Source: a virus
UHGV virus genome: UHGV-0132465
DNA length: 64,000 nucleotides
Reading direction: 5' to 3' (one strand)
In this document: positions 3,899 to 11,679 of the stretch, in pieces
Layout of the letters: each line of letters starts with the position of its first letter
How positions within the stretch are numbered: the first letter of the stretch is position 1
The notes under the pieces: model-generated
Seen by the model: the letters and a program-made list of their open reading frames with translations, nothing else
Told to the model about the DNA's origin: nothing
The model's database searches: none
Translations under genes and position numbers: made by a program

Positions 3899-4162
3899 TC
3901 AGAAACCCTCTAAAAAGCTCTTGTAGAAAATAATCTCAGTATCCACACCAGTCACGATCTTGTCGTTCCTGATTTCATCTGTAAGATAGGTGTCAAAACG
4001 CAGCACCTGTGTGGTATTGTCACACATCCACTCGGCTGTTACCATGGCAAAAATCTTAGCATCTTCATTATCTGGTGTAAATGTTACCACCTCACCGCAT
4101 TTAAACTTTTCGATAGGTTGCGTGTTAGCTTTCGGTTCTGCAATAGTGATTTTTGTAGTCAT
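3899..4162 (-). CDS. hypothetical protein (87 aa)
   Basis: ORF in co-oriented compact block. Confidence 0.45.
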   Translation of the reverse strand: MTTKITIAEPKANTQPIEKFKCGEVVTFTPDNEDAKIFAMVTAEWMCDNTTQVLRFDTYLTDEIRNDKIVTGVDTEIIFYKSFLEGF

Positions 4163-4428
4163 TACTCTTCCTTCATAGTTTCACCAAATACTTCGATACG
4201 AGCGTCAAGCTCTGTTGCTTTCAGCTCCCCAACAAAATCTTTCAGTTCTTTCTCGTCAAGATCGTATGCCCACACACAAGATGAGCATGCAGATTTCACG
4301 ATTAGCAGTGTAGATACACGGCCTGACTCTGTAATCATGCTCACAATGGTTCCTACAGGGAACGTGTTGATAGCTTTTTTAACTGGGCGTTCAGCTTTAA
4401 TTACTACCTCTGTTGCCATAAATACCAT
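4162..4428 (-). CDS. hypothetical protein (88 aa)
   Basis: ORF in co-oriented compact block. Confidence 0.45.
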   Translation of the reverse strand: MVFMATEVVIKAERPVKKAINTFPVGTIVSMITESGRVSTLLIVKSACSSCVWAYDLDEKELKDFVGELKATELDARIEVFGETMKEE

Positions 4429-4434
4429 CCTCTC

Positions 4435-5895
4435 TTACTTAGCGTACTCGATTAATTCCACAGTTTTCCCAAAGCTCGGGATATAATTTTTATTATACCC
4501 TTCGGTGAGAACCCATAAAGTATCGTACTTTTTCCACTTGTTGTCAACAGCCTTTTGTTCAAAGTTATGCTCAAAGTATAGGTCGGTCAGGACGATGACA
4601 TCTTTTGCATTCGGTATATTGGCATCCAGATACTTGAACACGCAAGCAGCTGTTGTGCCCCATGTTGAGTGGATCTCATAGTTGATCATCTCATCTATGT
4701 TACCGCGAGTGTATACTTTAACCTCTCCAACCTCAGTTGACCAACAGAACATTGTAACCTTAAACTCTTTATACAGATTGCACAATCCGGTGATTTCATT
4801 GAACATTTTCTTTAAAGTTCTTTGAGAGATCGAGCCAGAAACGTCTAAAGCCACAACAATATCTATAGTGTTTTCCGGATTACGACCAGGAACAATAACG
4901 TGCTGGTTCTTGTTTATGGCCCCAACTTTTCGCATTGTGCTGGTCAAAGACCCAGATCGGCGACCAGGTTTTCTGTAGGTCAGTTCAGCCTTTCGTTTAG
5001 ACAACATGCGTTGCTTAATAATGTCTATATAGTTGATTACAGGCTTACCTCTGTTCTTGACGAACTCACGCACCGCCTCGGGGCAACGACCTCCGGAAGC
5101 TTGCATTGCTGCCTCCAGCATGTCACCAGAGTCCTGCATGGCCTGATCTTTATCAGATTGGCTGATTACAGGTTGTGGCTGATCATACCCCATAGCCTTT
5201 CCAAGATCATCACTGGTGCCACCGTTCCCGCTCATGTGATCATCGGTTTGTCGTTTATCTCCTTGAGAGTTCTCACCTTTACCGTTCTTACTTTTACCGT
5301 TATTCTGATCTCTTTGTTTATCGAGAACTGCATAGACGTTTTCAGCAATCCATCCATGAAACTTCATGTCGCAGTAGCAATTAGCTAAGAAGCCAAAAGG
5401 CTTACCTTTTACGAACGTAGTGCTTTTCCCCTTCGGGAAGAAAACACAAGGAGGCTTGCTAAAGTCAACCACAAGGCCTGTGTTGATAACGTGATCACAG
5501 GCAATATTGAACAGCTCCGGCTCAAAGCTTTTACCACGGACCAAATGATCGCAGATAATATGCCCCACCTCATGTGACAGAAGAAAGGCCACCTCTTTCA
5601 CAGATTTTGGAGAATAGAAAACCTCAGCCATCTCAAACTGCTCGTCAGTTAGAGAGGCTTTAAGAATGGTTTTGCGCTCATCTGCCAACCCCATAATAAA
5701 CTCAGGGCTGTAATAGATGCGTTTATGGTCTGTTGCCATAGTGGAGCACCATGTGTGGTTTTCTACGAACTGCAACCCTGATAACAGTGTGCCATAAAAC
5801 GGCAGCTTTTCAAGGAGATACATACGTGCAGCCTGCAACATTCTCAGGGCATCATCTTTTTGCGAGGCAATGATTTCTGAACTTCTGCTATCCAT
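4435..5895 (-). CDS. predicted metallopeptidase (HExxH) fused to von Willebrand factor A domain (DUF2201/COG3864-like)
   Basis: HEVGHIICDH zinc-peptidase motif followed by VALDVSGSIS MIDAS motif; start moved to second ATG (MDSRSSEI) because the first ATG sits inside a GGGGCC-AAT-GGCCCC hairpin and the second has a GGAG RBS. Confidence 0.7.
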   Translation of the reverse strand: MDSRSSEIIASQKDDALRMLQAARMYLLEKLPFYGTLLSGLQFVENHTWCSTMATDHKRIYYSPEFIMGLADERKTILKASLTDEQFEMAEVFYSPKSVKEVAFLLSHEVGHIICDHLVRGKSFEPELFNIACDHVINTGLVVDFSKPPCVFFPKGKSTTFVKGKPFGFLANCYCDMKFHGWIAENVYAVLDKQRDQNNGKSKNGKGENSQGDKRQTDDHMSGNGGTSDDLGKAMGYDQPQPVISQSDKDQAMQDSGDMLEAAMQASGGRCPEAVREFVKNRGKPVINYIDIIKQRMLSKRKAELTYRKPGRRSGSLTSTMRKVGAINKNQHVIVPGRNPENTIDIVVALDVSGSISQRTLKKMFNEITGLCNLYKEFKVTMFCWSTEVGEVKVYTRGNIDEMINYEIHSTWGTTAACVFKYLDANIPNAKDVIVLTDLYFEHNFEQKAVDNKWKKYDTLWVLTEGYNKNYIPSFGKTVELIEYAK

Positions 5896-5928
5896 TAAAA
5901 CTCCAGAAGGGGCCATTGGCCCCTGTCA

Positions 5929-6915
5929 TTATTTAACGTGTTTGAAAATACTCGCCAACTCGGTCATCGTCATGCGGGTGGTCTTCATAAGGTCTGTCAT
6001 AGCTTTTTCCATAATCGGTGATACTACCATGAAGTTACCTTTAGTGAAACCTTTGTTCCAATCGGTTACCAACAGAGGTTTGATTCCTGCCCCAAGACGC
6101 TCACCAGTTAAAGCACAGCATTTGCGGATGTACGCACTCTTAAATTGGCTGAAGGACAGATCAACTTTCATACCTGCATCGTAGAACGTTTGGCAATAGA
6201 AAGTGTAAGCCTTGGCAATCTCAACATCATCAGGCAGTGCAGGAACCTCTTCTGCAACCTCCTCTTCGACCTCCTGAGGCTCTTTTTCCTCTTCAAAGGG
6301 CTGTTGCACCATTTCTTCAATTTCTTCTGTCACAGGCTCGTTTACGATGTCTGAAATGTGTTTGTTGGCTGCACGCTCTGCCATGAAATTCTTAAAGTCC
6401 TGCATTGGTGACATATCTTCCTCCTCTTCGTCAAATAGTGCTAGTTTATCTTCTTCTGTCCCGTATTGCAAGATGAAATCTTCAAAAGTATATTCATCTT
6501 TTAATTCCTCCATCCTCTCTTCGCTCAGGTGGAGCATCATTTGTTGGACAATTTTTCGATCAGTTTTGTCCTTAATCAAGATTGCGGTCGTTTTATCTAC
6601 CAGACAATCCTTGAGAGAGTTGCACCGAAGTCCCACCACACAACAGTTATCAATTGCGTAAGGACCTTCATCGTTTATCCGCTCCAAAGATGGGTAGAAC
6701 GGATTCCCCAGCCCGTTTTCATCTGTGTGCATGTCAAAAGGAATAAGGGTGTAGTCGCATACCCCCTCTCCTAAAAGTTTTTTACCGAATAGGAGGTATT
6801 CTTCCCACGACAGGTCGAACACTATACCTCGTTTTCGGGCATTATTCTGTTTGCGTCTGTATTTTTTGAGCAGGCGTTCTAGCTCTTCTGGTGTATAATA
6901 TTTTTCAAGATTCAT
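5929..6915 (-). CDS. hypothetical protein with internal duplication and acidic linker
   Basis: two related segments (GIVFDLSWEEY... and KVDLSFSQFKSAY...) separated by a Glu-rich stretch; start chosen at MNLEKYY to avoid overlap with the divergent promoter region. Confidence 0.5.
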   Translation of the reverse strand: MNLEKYYTPEELERLLKKYRRKQNNARKRGIVFDLSWEEYLLFGKKLLGEGVCDYTLIPFDMHTDENGLGNPFYPSLERINDEGPYAIDNCCVVGLRCNSLKDCLVDKTTAILIKDKTDRKIVQQMMLHLSEERMEELKDEYTFEDFILQYGTEEDKLALFDEEEEDMSPMQDFKNFMAERAANKHISDIVNEPVTEEIEEMVQQPFEEEKEPQEVEEEVAEEVPALPDDVEIAKAYTFYCQTFYDAGMKVDLSFSQFKSAYIRKCCALTGERLGAGIKPLLVTDWNKGFTKGNFMVVSPIMEKAMTDLMKTTRMTMTELASIFKHVK

Positions 6916-6946
6916 GAGTTGTCTCTTGTGCTCTGTAGGTGAAGAA

Positions 6947-6975
6947 ATCTTATCAAGTGCCTCGACAGATGTCAA
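6947..6975 (-). promoter_or_regulatory. sigma70-like promoter for the minus-strand block (TTGACA-17-TAAGAT)
   Basis: consensus -35, 17-bp spacer, -10-like hexamer about 25 nt upstream of the 6915 start. Confidence 0.5.
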
Positions 6976-6988
6976 CCTCAAAAACGTA

Positions 6989-7017
6989 TTGACTTTACTA
7001 TAAATCCACGATATAGT
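6989..7017 (+). promoter_or_regulatory. sigma70-like promoter for the plus-strand block (TTGACT-17-TATAGT)
   Basis: divergent from the 6947-6975 promoter; about 40 nt upstream of the 7058 ATG. Confidence 0.55.
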
Positions 7018-7057
7018 GCACCCATTCGAAAGAAAACGAACACAGGAGCACTTAATC

Positions 7058-7957
7058 ATGGCAAATCTTAACAGCTTTAGCACTCGGTGGAAACAAGATA
7101 TCACAACCAATCTCTCAGCAGGTGATATCCTTTCTGCAATTTACGAGGCTTTGGATGATAAAGCTACTTCAAAATCGGTTTGTACCAACCCGCTAATTCC
7201 TATAGTAATGAAGGTTATTGAGCGTAGGCTGGTATCCGGATCTGATAAGTGGACATATCTGGATAATGGAGGCCACACTTACTCCAATGGCTATGTCGAT
7301 ATAAAAGTAGAATATGCGGTATCATATCGCCGGAGCGGCTCTGTAACTTTCAACTTCTCTGGTGGTTTCCGATCTCTGGCAACTTCACCTTTTGTTTCCT
7401 CAGAGGAGAAGTTTGAACTTCCGTTCCTTTGGATGATGGCTAACGCGACAGGCAAAACCCCCGTAAGCATTCGCGTAAAATACAACTACAACGGATCTAG
7501 TAAGATCTATGCCGAGAGTGTCTCAGCAAGTTTTTATTTTGTGATGGGGGATGGAATCCTCAAACATATAAAGATGTGCGATATGCATGATGTTATAAAT
7601 GAAGTGACTGATAAGAATGTTCTGGTGAAGGATCTCAACAATTTTTATACACCTGGAGACTATTACGTCAACCGTCCACTGTGTATCTTTAATGCCGCAC
7701 ACCCTTTAGGTGAGTATCTGATCGCCAATAGCGATATTGCCAATAACCGCTTCGAGGTAGCAAGAGTGCAGAATGAGGTGTTGACATCTTGCAAGAGCGG
7801 TGATAAGTTTACCGAAGAAGAGATGGGTGTTTTAGAAATGATGGGATATAAGTGTAGCCTTTGGGTGGATGAGGTGTTTAATGACGGCATCTACGGACAG
7901 GGTATTTACCCGTTAAAGAAGTATACTGATTCCAGTCTAATTTACGCGGAGATTTGA
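7058..7957 (+). CDS. hypothetical protein (300 aa)
   Basis: ORF with CAGGAG RBS; start moved from 7016 to the RBS-preceded ATG. Confidence 0.55.
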   Translation: MANLNSFSTRWKQDITTNLSAGDILSAIYEALDDKATSKSVCTNPLIPIVMKVIERRLVSGSDKWTYLDNGGHTYSNGYVDIKVEYAVSYRRSGSVTFNFSGGFRSLATSPFVSSEEKFELPFLWMMANATGKTPVSIRVKYNYNGSSKIYAESVSASFYFVMGDGILKHIKMCDMHDVINEVTDKNVLVKDLNNFYTPGDYYVNRPLCIFNAAHPLGEYLIANSDIANNRFEVARVQNEVLTSCKSGDKFTEEEMGVLEMMGYKCSLWVDEVFNDGIYGQGIYPLKKYTDSSLIYAEI

Positions 7958-8232
7958 CTATGATGAAGTCATGTGGTAGTGTATATTATGTTGGTGAGAA
8001 TGTTCAGGCAGACAATGTGTGGAAATCCATTAAGTCCACCACCGACGATGCCTTCTTGAGTGGGTTATGTTTCCCAAATCCAGGAGACATTCTCCCCCAC
8101 TCCGGAGATTTTGTTGTCAACAAGACGGACGGTTATACCGTGTGCCTGATGGTTGAAAAAATCTTTTTAGACACTAGACACAATCACCGCCTTGTGTTAA
8201 AATTTCAAGAATGTAAAATGACAGTTGCCTAA
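7954..8232 (+). CDS. hypothetical protein (92 aa)
   Basis: ORF overlapping upstream stop by 4 nt. Confidence 0.45.
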   Translation: MTMMKSCGSVYYVGENVQADNVWKSIKSTTDDAFLSGLCFPNPGDILPHSGDFVVNKTDGYTVCLMVEKIFLDTRHNHRLVLKFQECKMTVA

Positions 8233-8244
8233 GGAGGCCTACCA

Positions 8245-8601
8245 ATGTCTAAAGTTACTTATCGTGCAGCTATTTACTGCAATGAGCAACCAATCAACAG
8301 TGATGGTCACTGCTTTTTTAAAGAAAATCAGTTGGGCTGTATTGCCCTCCTTGATGAAGGGGAAGGGTATATGATTGCATTGACAGGGTTTGAGCCTGAA
8401 GCCTTGGAAGCCAATCTGGACTACCTGGTAGAGAAGGGTGCTGCAGACTTGGTTGCCAATGGCCTCTCTATAGGCCTTGAAGAAGTGGAGCGCTTCATGG
8501 GCAATTACCGTGTAGTGCGTGAGTTTACTATCGAGGTGGAAACTCCAGAGTGGGGTAGCACTGAAACTAATGCTGAAGAAAAAGAAGAGGGGGTAGAATA
8601 A
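8245..8601 (+). CDS. hypothetical protein (118 aa)
   Basis: ORF with AGGAGG RBS. Confidence 0.5.
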   Translation: MSKVTYRAAIYCNEQPINSDGHCFFKENQLGCIALLDEGEGYMIALTGFEPEALEANLDYLVEKGAADLVANGLSIGLEEVERFMGNYRVVREFTIEVETPEWGSTETNAEEKEEGVE

Positions 8602-8858
8602 TGAAAGTACAGATCTTGACCAATGCCGAGAAGATGTTTATTGAAGATACGCCTTTTGAAACTGGTGAGCTACAGTTTGTATATTTTGTTGACTTAGATA
8701 AGGTTTTTCCTGCGCTGAATTTAGGCTTGGAGAAAGTACCTTATAAAACCCTGTGCCAGGTTGTCCGTGCCTTAGCGGCAGATGGGGAGTTCCACACCCT
8801 TGAAGATATTCAGACCTATGGGTATCTTGAACTGCAACGAGAAGAAGAGGTGGATTGA
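8601..8858 (+). CDS. hypothetical protein (85 aa)
   Basis: ORF in co-oriented compact block. Confidence 0.45.
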   Translation: MKVQILTNAEKMFIEDTPFETGELQFVYFVDLDKVFPALNLGLEKVPYKTLCQVVRALAADGEFHTLEDIQTYGYLELQREEEVD

Positions 8859-9241
8859 TAATGGCCCAGTGGAAGACAACAGTTGACCTTCATGATCAGT
8901 GGTTAGGACGCATAGCTGAAGACGGGAAACTGGTAGAGTGGGACAACAAGCATGTTAGCGAGTTGGCAAGTATTGTGGCTGGCAAGTTACGCTCCAAGTT
9001 CCCTGAACAACTGGATCCTGATAGTTCAAAGTTCGATCCTGAGTTGGAGGATGTTGTATACTACTTCGATACCGTTGATGACTACGACGCGTGGTTTGCA
9101 GCACTGGAGCTTTACCCACAAGGCTCTGCTATGCGCCAGATGGAAGAAGATTATCCTCCGTGTGAGCAATTCAATAGTGCAATGACTTGCCTCTATGATT
9201 GGGCAGATAAGAACCTTGTCTGGATTCGGACTGCATTCTAG
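8855..9241 (+). CDS. hypothetical protein (128 aa)
   Basis: ORF in co-oriented compact block. Confidence 0.5.
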   Translation: MIMAQWKTTVDLHDQWLGRIAEDGKLVEWDNKHVSELASIVAGKLRSKFPEQLDPDSSKFDPELEDVVYYFDTVDDYDAWFAALELYPQGSAMRQMEEDYPPCEQFNSAMTCLYDWADKNLVWIRTAF

Positions 9242-9285
9242 TGGGCAGGAATGGCGGCAAGGATGCTGCTTAAGGAGCAGTAGAT

Positions 9286-9555
9286 ATGTTATACCAGCAG
9301 TACGAACTTCATGCAGAAAAAGAATTAAATTTTGACAGAGATATTCACAGATATTATTATGGGAAAGTTAGAGGTCAAGCAAGAAAGTGTACTCCAACAC
9401 TCTTTTATGCCAGCAGACGACTAGCGCCAGAAGAGGCAACAGCAGAAAGGGTTGCGTACAACTGGAGAGTCACGTATGATATTGACAGATCCGATGTGAT
9501 ATCTGTTTTGGAAAACTTTGAAAACACTTACACACAAGTAGAGGACTTTTACTAA
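9286..9555 (+). CDS. hypothetical protein (89 aa)
   Basis: ORF in co-oriented compact block. Confidence 0.45.
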   Translation: MLYQQYELHAEKELNFDRDIHRYYYGKVRGQARKCTPTLFYASRRLAPEEATAERVAYNWRVTYDIDRSDVISVLENFENTYTQVEDFY

Positions 9556-10739
9556 TGTCAAGAAATGTATTCGAAAGTGGTCAAATCACTGTCCGCGAGT
9601 TGCCAGCTATTATTCAATTTGCCCAGCGTCATAACCGATCTGTCCTGATTTTAGGACCGATGGGTGTGGGAAAGAGCCAGGTGATGAAGCAGATTGCTGA
9701 TAATATGTTCGGTGAGCGAGATGACAACCTGGTTGACGTGCGGCTGTCAGATAAAGATCCTGCTGACTTATCCGGACTGCCTATCCCTGTAGAGTCAGAT
9801 GGAACTACACGTACAGTGTTTGCAATTCCAGAATTTTGGCCTGCAGATCCGAACTGGAGCGGAATTATCTTTCTGGATGAGCTTACTCATGCAGATAACT
9901 ACCTGCAGAAGGTTGCAATGCAAATTATGCTCGACAACAAGTGCGGCACCTATGCATTTCCTAAGGGCTCTGTTTTTGTAGCTGCAGGTAACCGTGCTAC
10001 AGATGGTGCTGTTCTTTCAGCGCTCGAAGCCCCTCTGGCTAACCGCTTTATCATTGTAGAAGTTACAAGCAGTGCAGAGGTATTTATTGAGGACTACGCA
10101 TTCCTTAATGGTGTACACTCCTCTGTAATTGGATATCTGAAAAGAGTTCCATCAGCTATCGATAATTATGAGGCTATGGCTGAGATTAATTGTCCATCTT
10201 TTGCCACACCGCGATCTTGGGTTGCTGCATCTGACATCTTGCACGATTTTGACAGCGGTATTATTTCTGACGCTATGGCTCGTGTTCTTCTGCAAGGTGC
10301 TATTGGTCACACTGCAGCGGTGGAAATCTGGACCTACCACACTAAGAAACGAAACTTGCCAGAAATCGGTCGGATTATGGCAGGGGGTTGCAAAGAATAT
10401 GTAGGTCCTAAGCAGCCAGATATCTTGTGGATTCTTGGGTCTGAAGGTTGTATTGCTATTCGGAATATGATGGAAAATGCAAGTGTCTCGGACGAAGACC
10501 TTGTTAGCTGCGTGGCAAACTTCCTCGATTTCCTTTGGGAAAATTTCAAAGATGAAAACCGAGACTTTGTATTCTCAGTCTTTATGGCGATGATGAAACC
10601 AAACGCTCTAGGAAATGCCTTGCTTATTGGTAAAGGCAGGGACAAGATCGTTGCTCAGCTGATCAAAGCATACCCAAACCTGATGAAGATTGTAAAAGAG
10701 TTTGGTGAAGAGTTTAGCGCCATTTTAGCTAAAGCTTGA
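9555..10739 (+). CDS. MoxR-type AAA+ ATPase (AAA_5-like)
   Basis: Walker A LILGPMGVGKSQ, Walker B IIFLDELTHAD, size and layout typical of MoxR/CoxD ATPases. Confidence 0.65.
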   Translation: MSRNVFESGQITVRELPAIIQFAQRHNRSVLILGPMGVGKSQVMKQIADNMFGERDDNLVDVRLSDKDPADLSGLPIPVESDGTTRTVFAIPEFWPADPNWSGIIFLDELTHADNYLQKVAMQIMLDNKCGTYAFPKGSVFVAAGNRATDGAVLSALEAPLANRFIIVEVTSSAEVFIEDYAFLNGVHSSVIGYLKRVPSAIDNYEAMAEINCPSFATPRSWVAASDILHDFDSGIISDAMARVLLQGAIGHTAAVEIWTYHTKKRNLPEIGRIMAGGCKEYVGPKQPDILWILGSEGCIAIRNMMENASVSDEDLVSCVANFLDFLWENFKDENRDFVFSVFMAMMKPNALGNALLIGKGRDKIVAQLIKAYPNLMKIVKEFGEEFSAILAKA

Positions 10740-10748
10740 GGAGGTTGT

Positions 10749-11129
10749 ATGGCTAAAGCAGGTAAGAGGGGAAACTACCTGGTGATATTGACCGAGGAGC
10801 CGGAGAAGGAGTACGAATGCAGCTCCACTTGCGTGATCGATATCCGAGAAAAAGATGTAGATGAAATCTGGTTTAAAATATTGGACGCTTGCGACAGCAG
10901 TGACTATTTCTTCATCTATGTCAACGATAAAGCGGGGTTCTTCCATGACGATGGTGAGTTACCGTATGAAATCTATGAACTTGTAGAGGCTTGCCATCGT
11001 GGAGATGCGGAGTTGTTTGGTCTACGGCTGAAAAGCGGTAAATTCTTCTATCAAGATGAATGCATGAATCTTCACAACTTCGTAGAGGGGACTTGCAACG
11101 ATGGAGAGATTTTGGCACACTACGATTAA
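10749..11129 (+). CDS. hypothetical protein (126 aa)
   Basis: ORF with GAGGAGG RBS. Confidence 0.5.
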   Translation: MAKAGKRGNYLVILTEEPEKEYECSSTCVIDIREKDVDEIWFKILDACDSSDYFFIYVNDKAGFFHDDGELPYEIYELVEACHRGDAELFGLRLKSGKFFYQDECMNLHNFVEGTCNDGEILAHYD

Positions 11130-11178
11130 TTTCTAAGACACACCCCGCTTCGGCGGGGATTTTCTATTTGGAGTTATT

Positions 11179-11679
11179 GTGAAAATTAAGATCTTTGCTA
11201 TTATTTTGAGCGCATTTTTATCGCTGCCTGTTGTTGCAGCACCAAAACAAAAAGTGTATCACACCTGCAAGCCGTCTGATACTAAGGAAAACATTCTGGC
11301 ATGCAATATCTACAGGGAGGCTAGAGGGGATGGCACGATGGGTATGCTGGCATCTGGGTTTGCCACACTAAACAGGAAATCTCACCCCAAATACCCAGAC
11401 ACTATAAGAAAGATTGTCTACCAACCTAACCAGTTTTCGTGGACAAACCACGGCAAAACTTTTAAGGTGACAGAAAAAGATTCATGGGATCACGCTAAAA
11501 GTCTTGCAAAGATGCTTCTAAAGGTCTATAATAACAACCATGTTGCATACATGGCTATGGATATAACAGGTGGAGCAACACACTACCATACAACAAAAGT
11601 ACGACCGAAATGGGCAAAAAAGATGCAGAGGACAGCTCAATTCGGGAGTCATATCTACTACAAGGAGCGCAATAAATGA
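11179..11679 (+). CDS. secreted SleB/CwlJ-family cell-wall hydrolase-like protein
   Basis: N-terminal signal peptide MKIKIFAIILSAFLSLPVVAA; NIYREARGD ... NR ... QPNQFSW ... HYH pattern characteristic of Hydrolase_2; GTG start with GGAG RBS. Confidence 0.7.
   Translation: MKIKIFAIILSAFLSLPVVAAPKQKVYHTCKPSDTKENILACNIYREARGDGTMGMLASGFATLNRKSHPKYPDTIRKIVYQPNQFSWTNHGKTFKVTEKDSWDHAKSLAKMLLKVYNNNHVAYMAMDITGGATHYHTTKVRPKWAKKMQRTAQFGSHIYYKERNK

Follow-up and report, generated by a model that had tools for sequence, protein, structure and literature searches.

Does a phage that carries an AAA+ ATPase of the MoxR class on one strand and, some kilobases away on the other strand, a protein joining a metallopeptidase-like domain to a vWA domain encode one machine or two separate proteins, and what would such a machine be for? 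This question was raised by a 64,000-nucleotide stretch of the virus genome UHGV-0132465 (hereafter the window), in which the metallopeptidase-vWA gene (4435-5895, minus strand) and the ATPase gene (9555-10739, plus strand) are both present as open reading frames (ORFs) whose starts lie 3,660 nucleotides (nt) apart. We found that they form a two-gene module, that they are clearly a true cognate pair, and that the module is a known, widespread cassette of phages and bacteria. The window comes from a Vequintavirus (rV5/FV3-like) myophage, with Escherichia phages rV5 and FV3 as relatives. Over positions 4000-11200 (7.2 kb), 122 phage records match it at 90-95% identity, with HMD-6 at the top (95.3%), and the ATPase gene of an IMG/VR contig (L010) is 100% identical to that of the window.

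The minus-strand protein matched two Pfam families well above their gathering cutoffs, DUF2201_N (PF13203, 'putative metallopeptidase'; 2.7e-28, 99.8 bits against a cutoff of 23.2) and DUF2201 (PF09967, 'VWA-like'; 3.2e-10, 40.6 bits against 26.4). Counting residues from the ATG at 5916, as is done for this protein throughout, a zincin domain occupies residues ~10-200 and is followed by a disordered acidic/Gly linker (~205-250), a helical middle part and a C-terminal vWA domain (~350-490); a YxRPxRR segment at residues ~315-345 is conserved. Across 33 homologues of 21-82% identity, residues H115, E116, H119, H124 and D141 were invariant, and so were D358, S360, S362, T421 and D445 of the metal ion-dependent adhesion site (MIDAS), down to 21% identity. 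A fold search with the structural model recovered the vWA fold, including a match to NorD's own vWA domain, and the modelled secondary structure of the N-terminal domain (a three-stranded sheet, the HExxH helix and a second helix with D141) is compatible with a zincin. Searching PDB with the single sequence matched nothing. The longest ORF spans 4435-5916, and we prefer the start at 5895. This start is almost certainly real because GGAG (5904-5901) lies 5 nt upstream of it, a 99%-identical representative (P0121) has 486 amino acids (aa), and the ATG at 5916 sits inside a hairpin loop. The first-pass annotation had read this gene as an HExxH metallopeptidase fused to a vWA domain with an intact MIDAS motif, and the profiles together with the conservation of both motifs in homologues bear it out. 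The family is a large one: the DUF2201 profile matched 33,729 cluster representatives, of which 15,198 scored E<=1e-30.

Placing the ATPase required its relatives. Single-sequence searches of Pfam, NCBIfam, PADLOC and PDB returned only generic P-loop or Clp matches, from which placement was not possible, and the bpMoxR profile gave 15.6 bits, below its cutoff of 27. Homologues at E~1e-44 carry AAA_3 (PF07726, the MoxR family proper), AAA_5 (PF07728) and sometimes bpMoxR, and a profile built from 26 sequences matched the AAA modules of Midasin (2e-10). The structural model (predicted local distance difference test score 83.7) shows a helix-2-insert hairpin at residues 76-89 and a pre-sensor-1 β-hairpin at 129-134, with a helical C-terminal extension (~270-394) after the AAA+ core. 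Its closest solved folds were NorQ (including NorQ–NorD complexes), CbbQ2 and cso-CbbQ, with E 4e-8 and target-normalised template-modelling (TM) scores of 0.62-0.66. Because of these homologue domains, the Midasin match, the two hairpins and the NorQ/CbbQ folds, we assign the protein to the MoxR-class AAA+ ATPases, CbbQ/NorQ type, in agreement with the MoxR/AAA_5-like reading of the first pass. A clamp-loader identity was rejected, RFC and clamp loaders reaching only TM ~0.3. Residues K40, D108, E109, sensor 1 N146, arginine finger R164 and sensor 2 R220 are invariant among homologues, and by its motifs the ATPase is predicted to be catalytically intact.

We then asked how constantly the two genes go together. 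For viruses, 80 IMG/VR loci were anchored on the ATPase and their six-frame ORFs searched with hidden Markov models of both families; 70 loci were informative, the other 10 reaching a contig edge. The partner lay at most 400 nt downstream of the ATPase on the same strand in 68 of the 70, and the sole two exceptions were Vequintavirinae-type loci, where the genes are divergent and ~3.6 kb apart. The window likewise lacks the ATPase-first, adjacent, co-directional order, its genes being divergent. The bacterial census covered 80 loci (75 informative), mostly on Campylobacterota chromosomes (Sulfuricurvum, Sulfurimonas, Aliarcobacter) and at 33-37% identity. Here, the genes were adjacent and co-directional in 58 of the 75 informative loci, or in 63 if five stop-to-stop frame overlaps are counted; some ten loci had the partner on the same strand 0.6-5.5 kb off, two had no partner, and an opposite-strand pair occurred in none. 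Outside Vequintavirinae, the nearest ATPase homologues, on ~150-kb phage contigs, stand directly upstream of a DUF2201_N+DUF2201 gene, and the ATPase is also found directly upstream of a DUF2201 gene in the Sulfurivermis fontis chromosome and in an N4-like Sulfitobacter phage.

The two genes also travelled together by other measures. Their identities to the window fall in parallel (ATPase/partner 42-43/40% in L006, 35/35% in L007, 31/30% in L001-type loci and 23/24% in N4-like phages), and their genus distributions among sequenced phages are nearly the same. At 95% identity or above, the ATPase occurs in 118 records and its partner in 119, so that both are kept in essentially all close rV5-like records. 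The proposal that the pair is one module thus stands, and its co-occurrence in related genomes is near universal. In 28 of 79 bacterial loci (L094-L172; for example L121, 5597-5932), the gene directly upstream of the MoxR ATPase codes for a small, Cys-rich protein resembling NifQ, and a flavodiiron protein, an ArsC-family (ArsC/Spx-like) protein, a nitroreductase, an ExoX-like exonuclease and a PIF1 helicase recur nearby. The NifQ-like and redox neighbours may hint at the client or cofactor that the pair serves in bacteria.

The module has relatives that were described before. A tblastn search with the window ATPase found gp24 of phage N4 (2e-20), and the partner matched PhAPEC7 gp25 (6e-11), annotated as 'similar to N4 gp25'. 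Judged from these matches, the window pair is orthologous to N4 gp24 (AAA ATPase) and gp25 (vWFA protein), which belong to the 14 core genes of N4-like phages, were listed as such in 2009 and 2014, are carried on middle transcripts and are given as of unknown function (PMC4193335, PMC2784036). In BLASTP, the pair also matched ASV44729.1 (4e-35) and ASV44728.2 (4e-33) of Agrobacterium phage Atu_ph07 over nearly the full length. Iyer, Anantharaman, Krishnan, Burroughs and Aravind described a jumbo-phage MoxR–vWA pair in which the vWA protein is fused to an N-terminal metallopeptidase, and these two Atu_ph07 proteins are among their examples (Viruses 13:63, 2021). In rV5 itself, the 2006/2013 annotation calls ORF4 a 'MoxR ATPase' and lists ORF12 with PF13203 DUF2201_N, and many newer records name the partner 'VWA-like domain-containing protein' or 'putative metallopeptidase'. 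The first-pass view that the arrangement was undescribed therefore falls as regards the module. In a literature search with subscription journals mostly outside its scope, no paper treated the rV5-type genes as a pair or mentioned their split. Collectively, these data place the window pair in an ancient cassette, an adjacent operon of ATPase then metallopeptidase-vWA that is common to N4-like, rV5-like and jumbo phages and to bacterial chromosomes.

How, then, did the pair come apart? Intermediate relatives were informative. In L007 (ATPase 35% identical) the two are direct neighbours with a 37-nt gap; in L006 (42-43%) they share one strand with four small ORFs in between; in L008 (49%), L011 (54%) and the window they are divergent and ~3.6 kb apart. 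In L006 and L007, a SleB-like hydrolase and a PIF1-like helicase lie on the arm opposite ATPase+DUF2201, whereas in the split genomes the ATPase sits on the hydrolase/PIF1 arm and the DUF2201 gene is still on the other. Because the hydrolase/PIF1 genes switch arm relative to the ATPase, the simplest reading of the gene orders is that an inversion carried the ATPase segment to the other side of the divergent promoter region; the split would then be a lineage-specific inversion of an ancestrally adjacent operon rather than a designed divergent architecture. The Srd-like gene that precedes the DUF2201 gene is restricted to split-type genomes. A similar loosening of the pair by insertions, including a homing endonuclease, is seen in jumbo phage MIJ3. 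In L008, we noticed an IS605 OrfB/TnpB gene (8081-9178, with a Cas12f1-like_TNB domain) inserted between the divergent genes beside an RlaP-domain ORF, that is, a mobile element in the promoter-proximal region of a lytic phage.

The position of the two genes bears on when they would be expressed. As the first-pass annotation had seen, they lie on opposite strands around a divergent promoter region; this intergenic region is the counterpart of the stretch between rV5 genes 10 and 11 for which bidirectional promoters have been reported, and predicted sigma70-like sites stand back to back in it (Table 1). The promoter sites are given as predictions because the total of promoter-like sites in the region was not above chance (18 against 12.9±4.0 expected), their positions alone being suggestive. 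According to the rV5 paper, gp11 is an Srd-like anti-sigma factor and the late genes are 27-66; the pair lies outside these and flanks sigma70-type bidirectional promoters. Early expression of the pair from sigma70-type promoters would be plausible. Across six lineages, its neighbours were replication, nucleotide-metabolism or host-interaction genes (among them 5'-3' exonuclease, ThyA/ThyX, dCTP deaminase, DNA polymerase I, RNA ligase, glutaredoxin, PIF1, DnaB, rIIA and Srd) and never capsid or tail genes. The mass spectrometry table of rV5 virion proteins has no entry matching ORF4 or ORF12.

From these observations we propose that the pair would work as an AAA+/vWA remodelling machine of the NorQD kind to which a zincin is joined, acting on a non-virion client in early to middle infection, a reading we consider somewhat probable. 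The ATPase would form a MoxR-type hexamer, with the partner as its vWA co-chaperone bearing an N-terminal zincin. In NorQ–NorD, the vWA domain is seated on the concave side of the ring and reaches into the pore with a finger, and the linker is stretched (PMC13036017); by analogy, the vWA domain of the partner may dock on the ATPase ring. Its MIDAS could grip an acidic residue of the client protein, and ATP-driven rotation or stretching could pass along the flexible linker, such that the client would be exposed to the zincin domain and then cleaved or processed. The pair would in this way be a two-component analogue of FtsH. A remodel-then-cleave machine is favoured because the partner has a NorD-like domain order and yet an N-terminal zincin with an invariant catalytic Glu. 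Judged by gene context and timing, the machine would probably act on an intracellular protein of the early to middle (replication) phase and not on a virion part. A bolder version would make the pair a new class of two-component ATP-dependent protease (a MoxR ring with a zincin-vWA adaptor-protease) that would choose its client by the MIDAS and would itself be essential for the replication phase of at least three phage groups (N4-like, rV5-like, jumbo) and of many bacteria; we regard it as doubtful. If it were true, discovery of the client, be it a host factor or a replication/nucleotide-metabolism enzyme of the phage, would give a function to >15,000 DUF2201 sequence clusters.

Several observations weigh against this proposal. 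Fold search left the N-terminal domain unplaced, vWA matches crowding the result lists, and profile matches for it were weak (E 0.01-0.1): selecase MJ1213, a minigluzincin (0.012), HtpX and BepA/M48. The putative peptidase assignment draws on Pfam, the motif and these weak M48/minigluzincin matches, and the third zinc ligand could be H124 or D141. A long 'finger' insertion was not obvious in the compact vWA model. In Pfam, DUF2201_N and DUF2201 scored above cutoff for the partner, but AAA_5 stayed sub-threshold with the ATPase's own sequence (17.7 bits against 22) and AAA_3 was not listed. Moreover, metal insertion or the remodelling of complexes, rather than protein degradation, is what most of the characterised MoxR–vWA pairs carry out. 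The data thus show the domain identities, the intact catalytic motifs, homology, co-occurrence and the rearrangement, and it is physical interaction, proteolysis, timing and the type of client that we infer.

In a rival reading, the pair would insert a metal cofactor or activate an enzyme without proteolysis, as systems of the NorQD, CbbQO, CobST or CoxDE type do; the HExxH domain would bind a metal or the client, itself a metalloenzyme or redox enzyme such as one of nucleotide metabolism. The closest solved relatives of the ATPase are indeed NorQ and CbbQ, the bacterial operons have the redox/metal neighbours described above (NifQ-like, flavodiiron, ArsC/Spx-like, nitroreductase), and thioredoxin and ferrochelatase are found in L004, glutaredoxin in Atu_ph07, and ThyA/ThyX and dCTP deaminase in phages. 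Yet HExxH with its catalytic Glu is invariant in 33 very divergent sequences, which argues for catalysis; no single candidate client enzyme is common to all lineages; and the neighbour associations are weak, some of the neighbours being DNA enzymes (PIF1, ExoX). We therefore hold this reading to be unlikely. Rather unlikely, too, is the role that Iyer et al. (2021) proposed for the jumbo-phage pair, virion assembly with peptidolytic processing, in which a chaperone-protease would fold, assemble or proteolytically mature structural proteins. It is a published proposal for the same family, of which we verified the membership, and the p618/p892 pair of Acidianus two-tailed virus is cited as a viral MoxR–vWA precedent in tail development. 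Moreover, chaperones need no packaging, such that absence of both proteins from the rV5 virion table speaks against this role without being decisive. In addition, the genes lie among early, middle or replication genes and not in structural modules in every lineage examined, the N4 orthologues are middle transcripts and the rV5 genes fall outside the late block, and the same cassette resides on the chromosomes of bacteria, in which there are no virions to assemble. The published proposal is thus opposed by gene context, by the timing of the N4 genes and by the proteomics of rV5 virions.

The first-pass annotation had raised the idea of anti-defence or conflict, that is, a host-takeover protease by which the pair would remodel or destroy a host factor such as a defence protein. 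The genes do lie near the promoter-proximal ends of non-late units, by an Srd-like anti-sigma factor, rIIA and other host-interaction genes, and a zincin with an unfoldase is a plausible route to remove a host protein. Anti-defence genes, however, are typically accessory and patchy, whereas this pair supplies 2 of the 14 genes in the N4-like core and persists in three phage groups with very different hosts, and bacterial chromosomes carry the same operon. PADLOC gave only short, trivial P-loop matches for the ATPase (E>5e-4) and none for the partner, and the third component of MoxR–vWA conflict systems was absent from the window and from eight related loci. The idea lost ground accordingly and now appears quite unlikely. 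There was finally the possibility that the two genes work independently since the split, or that one is decaying, their pairing being merely historical. They do belong to separate transcription units, with 3.6 kb between them, and promoter-like sites precede the ATPase itself; but neither gene has lost a catalytic residue, essentially all close relatives keep the two, ATPase and partner diverge in parallel, and both are still tied to one bidirectional promoter region. We consider independence very improbable, and retain the remodel-then-cleave machine as the preferred reading.

Table 1. Features of the module and its surroundings in the window.
Feature	Position	Strand	Remarks
Metallopeptidase-vWA co-chaperone gene, 486 aa	4435-5895	-	rV5 ORF12, N4 gp25 orthologue
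MIDAS D445 codon	4582-4584	-	
MIDAS T421 codon	4654-4656	-	
DVSGS codons, DxSxS of MIDAS	4831-4845	-	translation
HEVGHIICDH codons, zincin active-site motif (H115, E116, H119, H124)	5545-5574	-	translation
Srd-like anti-sigma factor gene (rV5 gp11)	5929-6915	-	phrog_3118/1400/4592; context, outside the module
Divergent intergenic region, 142 nt, with back-to-back sigma70-like promoter sites	6916-7057	.	consensus scan; predicted
TTGACA-17-TAAGAT site (rV5 P11)	6975-6947	-	drives Srd-like gene, then metallopeptidase-vWA gene; predicted
TTGACT-17-TATAGT site	6989-7017	+	ATPase-containing arm; predicted
Sigma70-like site in 89-aa ORF upstream of ATPase	9332-9360	+	11/12 matches; predicted
Sigma70-like site in 89-aa ORF (annotated rV5 P4)	9482-9509	+	alignment; predicted
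MoxR-class AAA+ ATPase gene, 394 aa	9555-10739	+	rV5 ORF4, N4 gp24 orthologue; phrog_1297 'ATPase'
Walker A GPMGVGKS	9654-9677	+	G39, K40, S41 invariant
Walker B FLDE (D108, E109)	9870-9881	+	D108, E109 invariant
126-aa ORF directly 3' of ATPase (rV5 ORF3)	10749-11129	+	
Terminator-like GC hairpin and T-run after ATPase and 126-aa ORF	11143-11158	+	

The genes between the pair had been taken for small, uncharacterised ORFs. Five are small ORFs indeed, but the Srd-like anti-sigma factor gene and an ORF annotated as a 299-aa fucosyltransferase-like protein also lie there. The 89-aa ORF that overlaps the ATPase start (9286-9555, plus strand; phrog_13164, labelled 'ATPase' in PHROGs) was rejected as a third component of the module, being absent from L008, L011 and remoter relatives. 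The 126-aa ORF on the other side of the ATPase is not kept beside it in more distant relatives; the supplementary table of rV5 gives it similarity to T5.083 of phage T5, a hypothetical protein (6e-22). Between the Srd-like stop (5929) and the metallopeptidase-vWA start (5895), we noticed a perfect 7-bp GC-rich hairpin (5908-5924, AGGGGCC-AAT-GGCCCCT on the gene strand), with no clear T-run after it on that strand. Lying between two cistrons, it could serve as an attenuator or as an element for RNA processing or stability.

Public records of these genes call for some caution. In the rV5 record DQ832317 (7756-9217), the metallopeptidase-vWA gene is split into ORF12 (441 aa, 7756-9081) and an ORF13 that overlaps it and runs to 9217, likely through a frameshift or sequencing error since 9217 is the exact expected end of the 486-aa protein. 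The zincin-vWA family phrog_1314 is named 'HNH endonuclease', a label copied by records, and other records have 'DNA repair ATPase'; we rejected both labels as annotation errors, no HNH or repair domain being detectable in the protein. The MoxR ATPase is mislabelled as 'ribosomal protein uS19' in SSBI34 and as 'replication factor protein' in Kashira. Sixteen records are titled 'Campylobacter phage' (host C. jejuni; for example MG065646, phage D1), and their identity to E. coli rV5-like phages is 90-95% at the DNA level and ~99% at the protein level; they are probably mislabelled as to host or contaminated by coliphage.

What is new here is the assignment of the rV5-type genes to the N4 gp24/gp25 and jumbo-phage family, the recognition that three phage groups and bacterial chromosomes have an ancient operon of adjacent genes in common, and the tracing of the divergent Vequintavirinae layout to a probable inversion across a bidirectional promoter. 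Since the pair is naturally split, each gene should be deletable or mutable without polar effects on the other, and rV5-like phages infecting E. coli K-12, together with N4, are convenient systems for the function of N4 gp24/gp25-type proteins.

Compared with known systems, the window pair resembles several without coinciding with any. FtsH offers a functional analogy only, an AAA+ ring with an HExxH zincin of the M41 family; it belongs to another AAA+ clade, lacks a vWA domain and consists of a single polypeptide anchored in the membrane. The p618 (MoxR) and p892 (vWA) proteins of Acidianus two-tailed virus are likewise a virus-encoded MoxR–vWA pair; as cited, they come from an archaeal virus, lack a peptidase domain and have a demonstrated link to tail development. 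The ternary conflict systems of Kaur, Burroughs, Iyer and Aravind (eLife 9:e52696, 2020) share the MoxR–vWA core couple, and rare ones have a metallopeptidase in the effector position fused to the vWA domain. They differ in that the window pair is a two-gene cassette, also present in phage core genomes, without hypervariable effectors; neither their third component (VMAP, iSTAND, beta-propeller, FtsH) nor effector domains were found among the neighbours in the window and eight related loci.

NorQ–NorD and CbbQ–CbbO are nearer in structure: they gave the top structural matches of the ATPase, the NorD vWA domain matched that of the partner, and NorQ–NorD shares with the window the order of N-terminal domain, linker and vWA with MIDAS. 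In contrast, NorD and CbbO have no zincin domain, their known roles are metal insertion or Rubisco reactivation, identity of the NorQ/CbbQ pairs to the window is 15-20%, and the window ATPase has a helical C-terminal region of ~125 extra residues. The pair of Iyer et al. belongs to the same two families and has the same domain architecture, and in Atu_ph07 the genes of ASV44729.1 and ASV44728.2 are adjacent. Unlike those jumbo phages, the host genome of the window pair is that of a 137-kb rV5-like myophage in which the pair is split and divergent, and the virion-assembly proposal fits poorly with the gene context found here. N4 gp24/gp25 agree with the window pair in this context, lying in a non-late region beside replication and nucleotide-metabolism genes. 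The pair of N4-like phages (Schitoviridae) nevertheless differs, with 23-26% identity to the window, adjacent genes and middle transcription by the phage RNA polymerase II. Vequintavirinae have, relative to N4-like phages, a longer C-terminal region in the ATPase and, in the partner, an insertion of ~40 residues before the active-site helix. This insertion, of two helices (residues ~75-105) between the β-sheet and the HExxH helix, is absent from the N4-like, marine and bacterial homologues.

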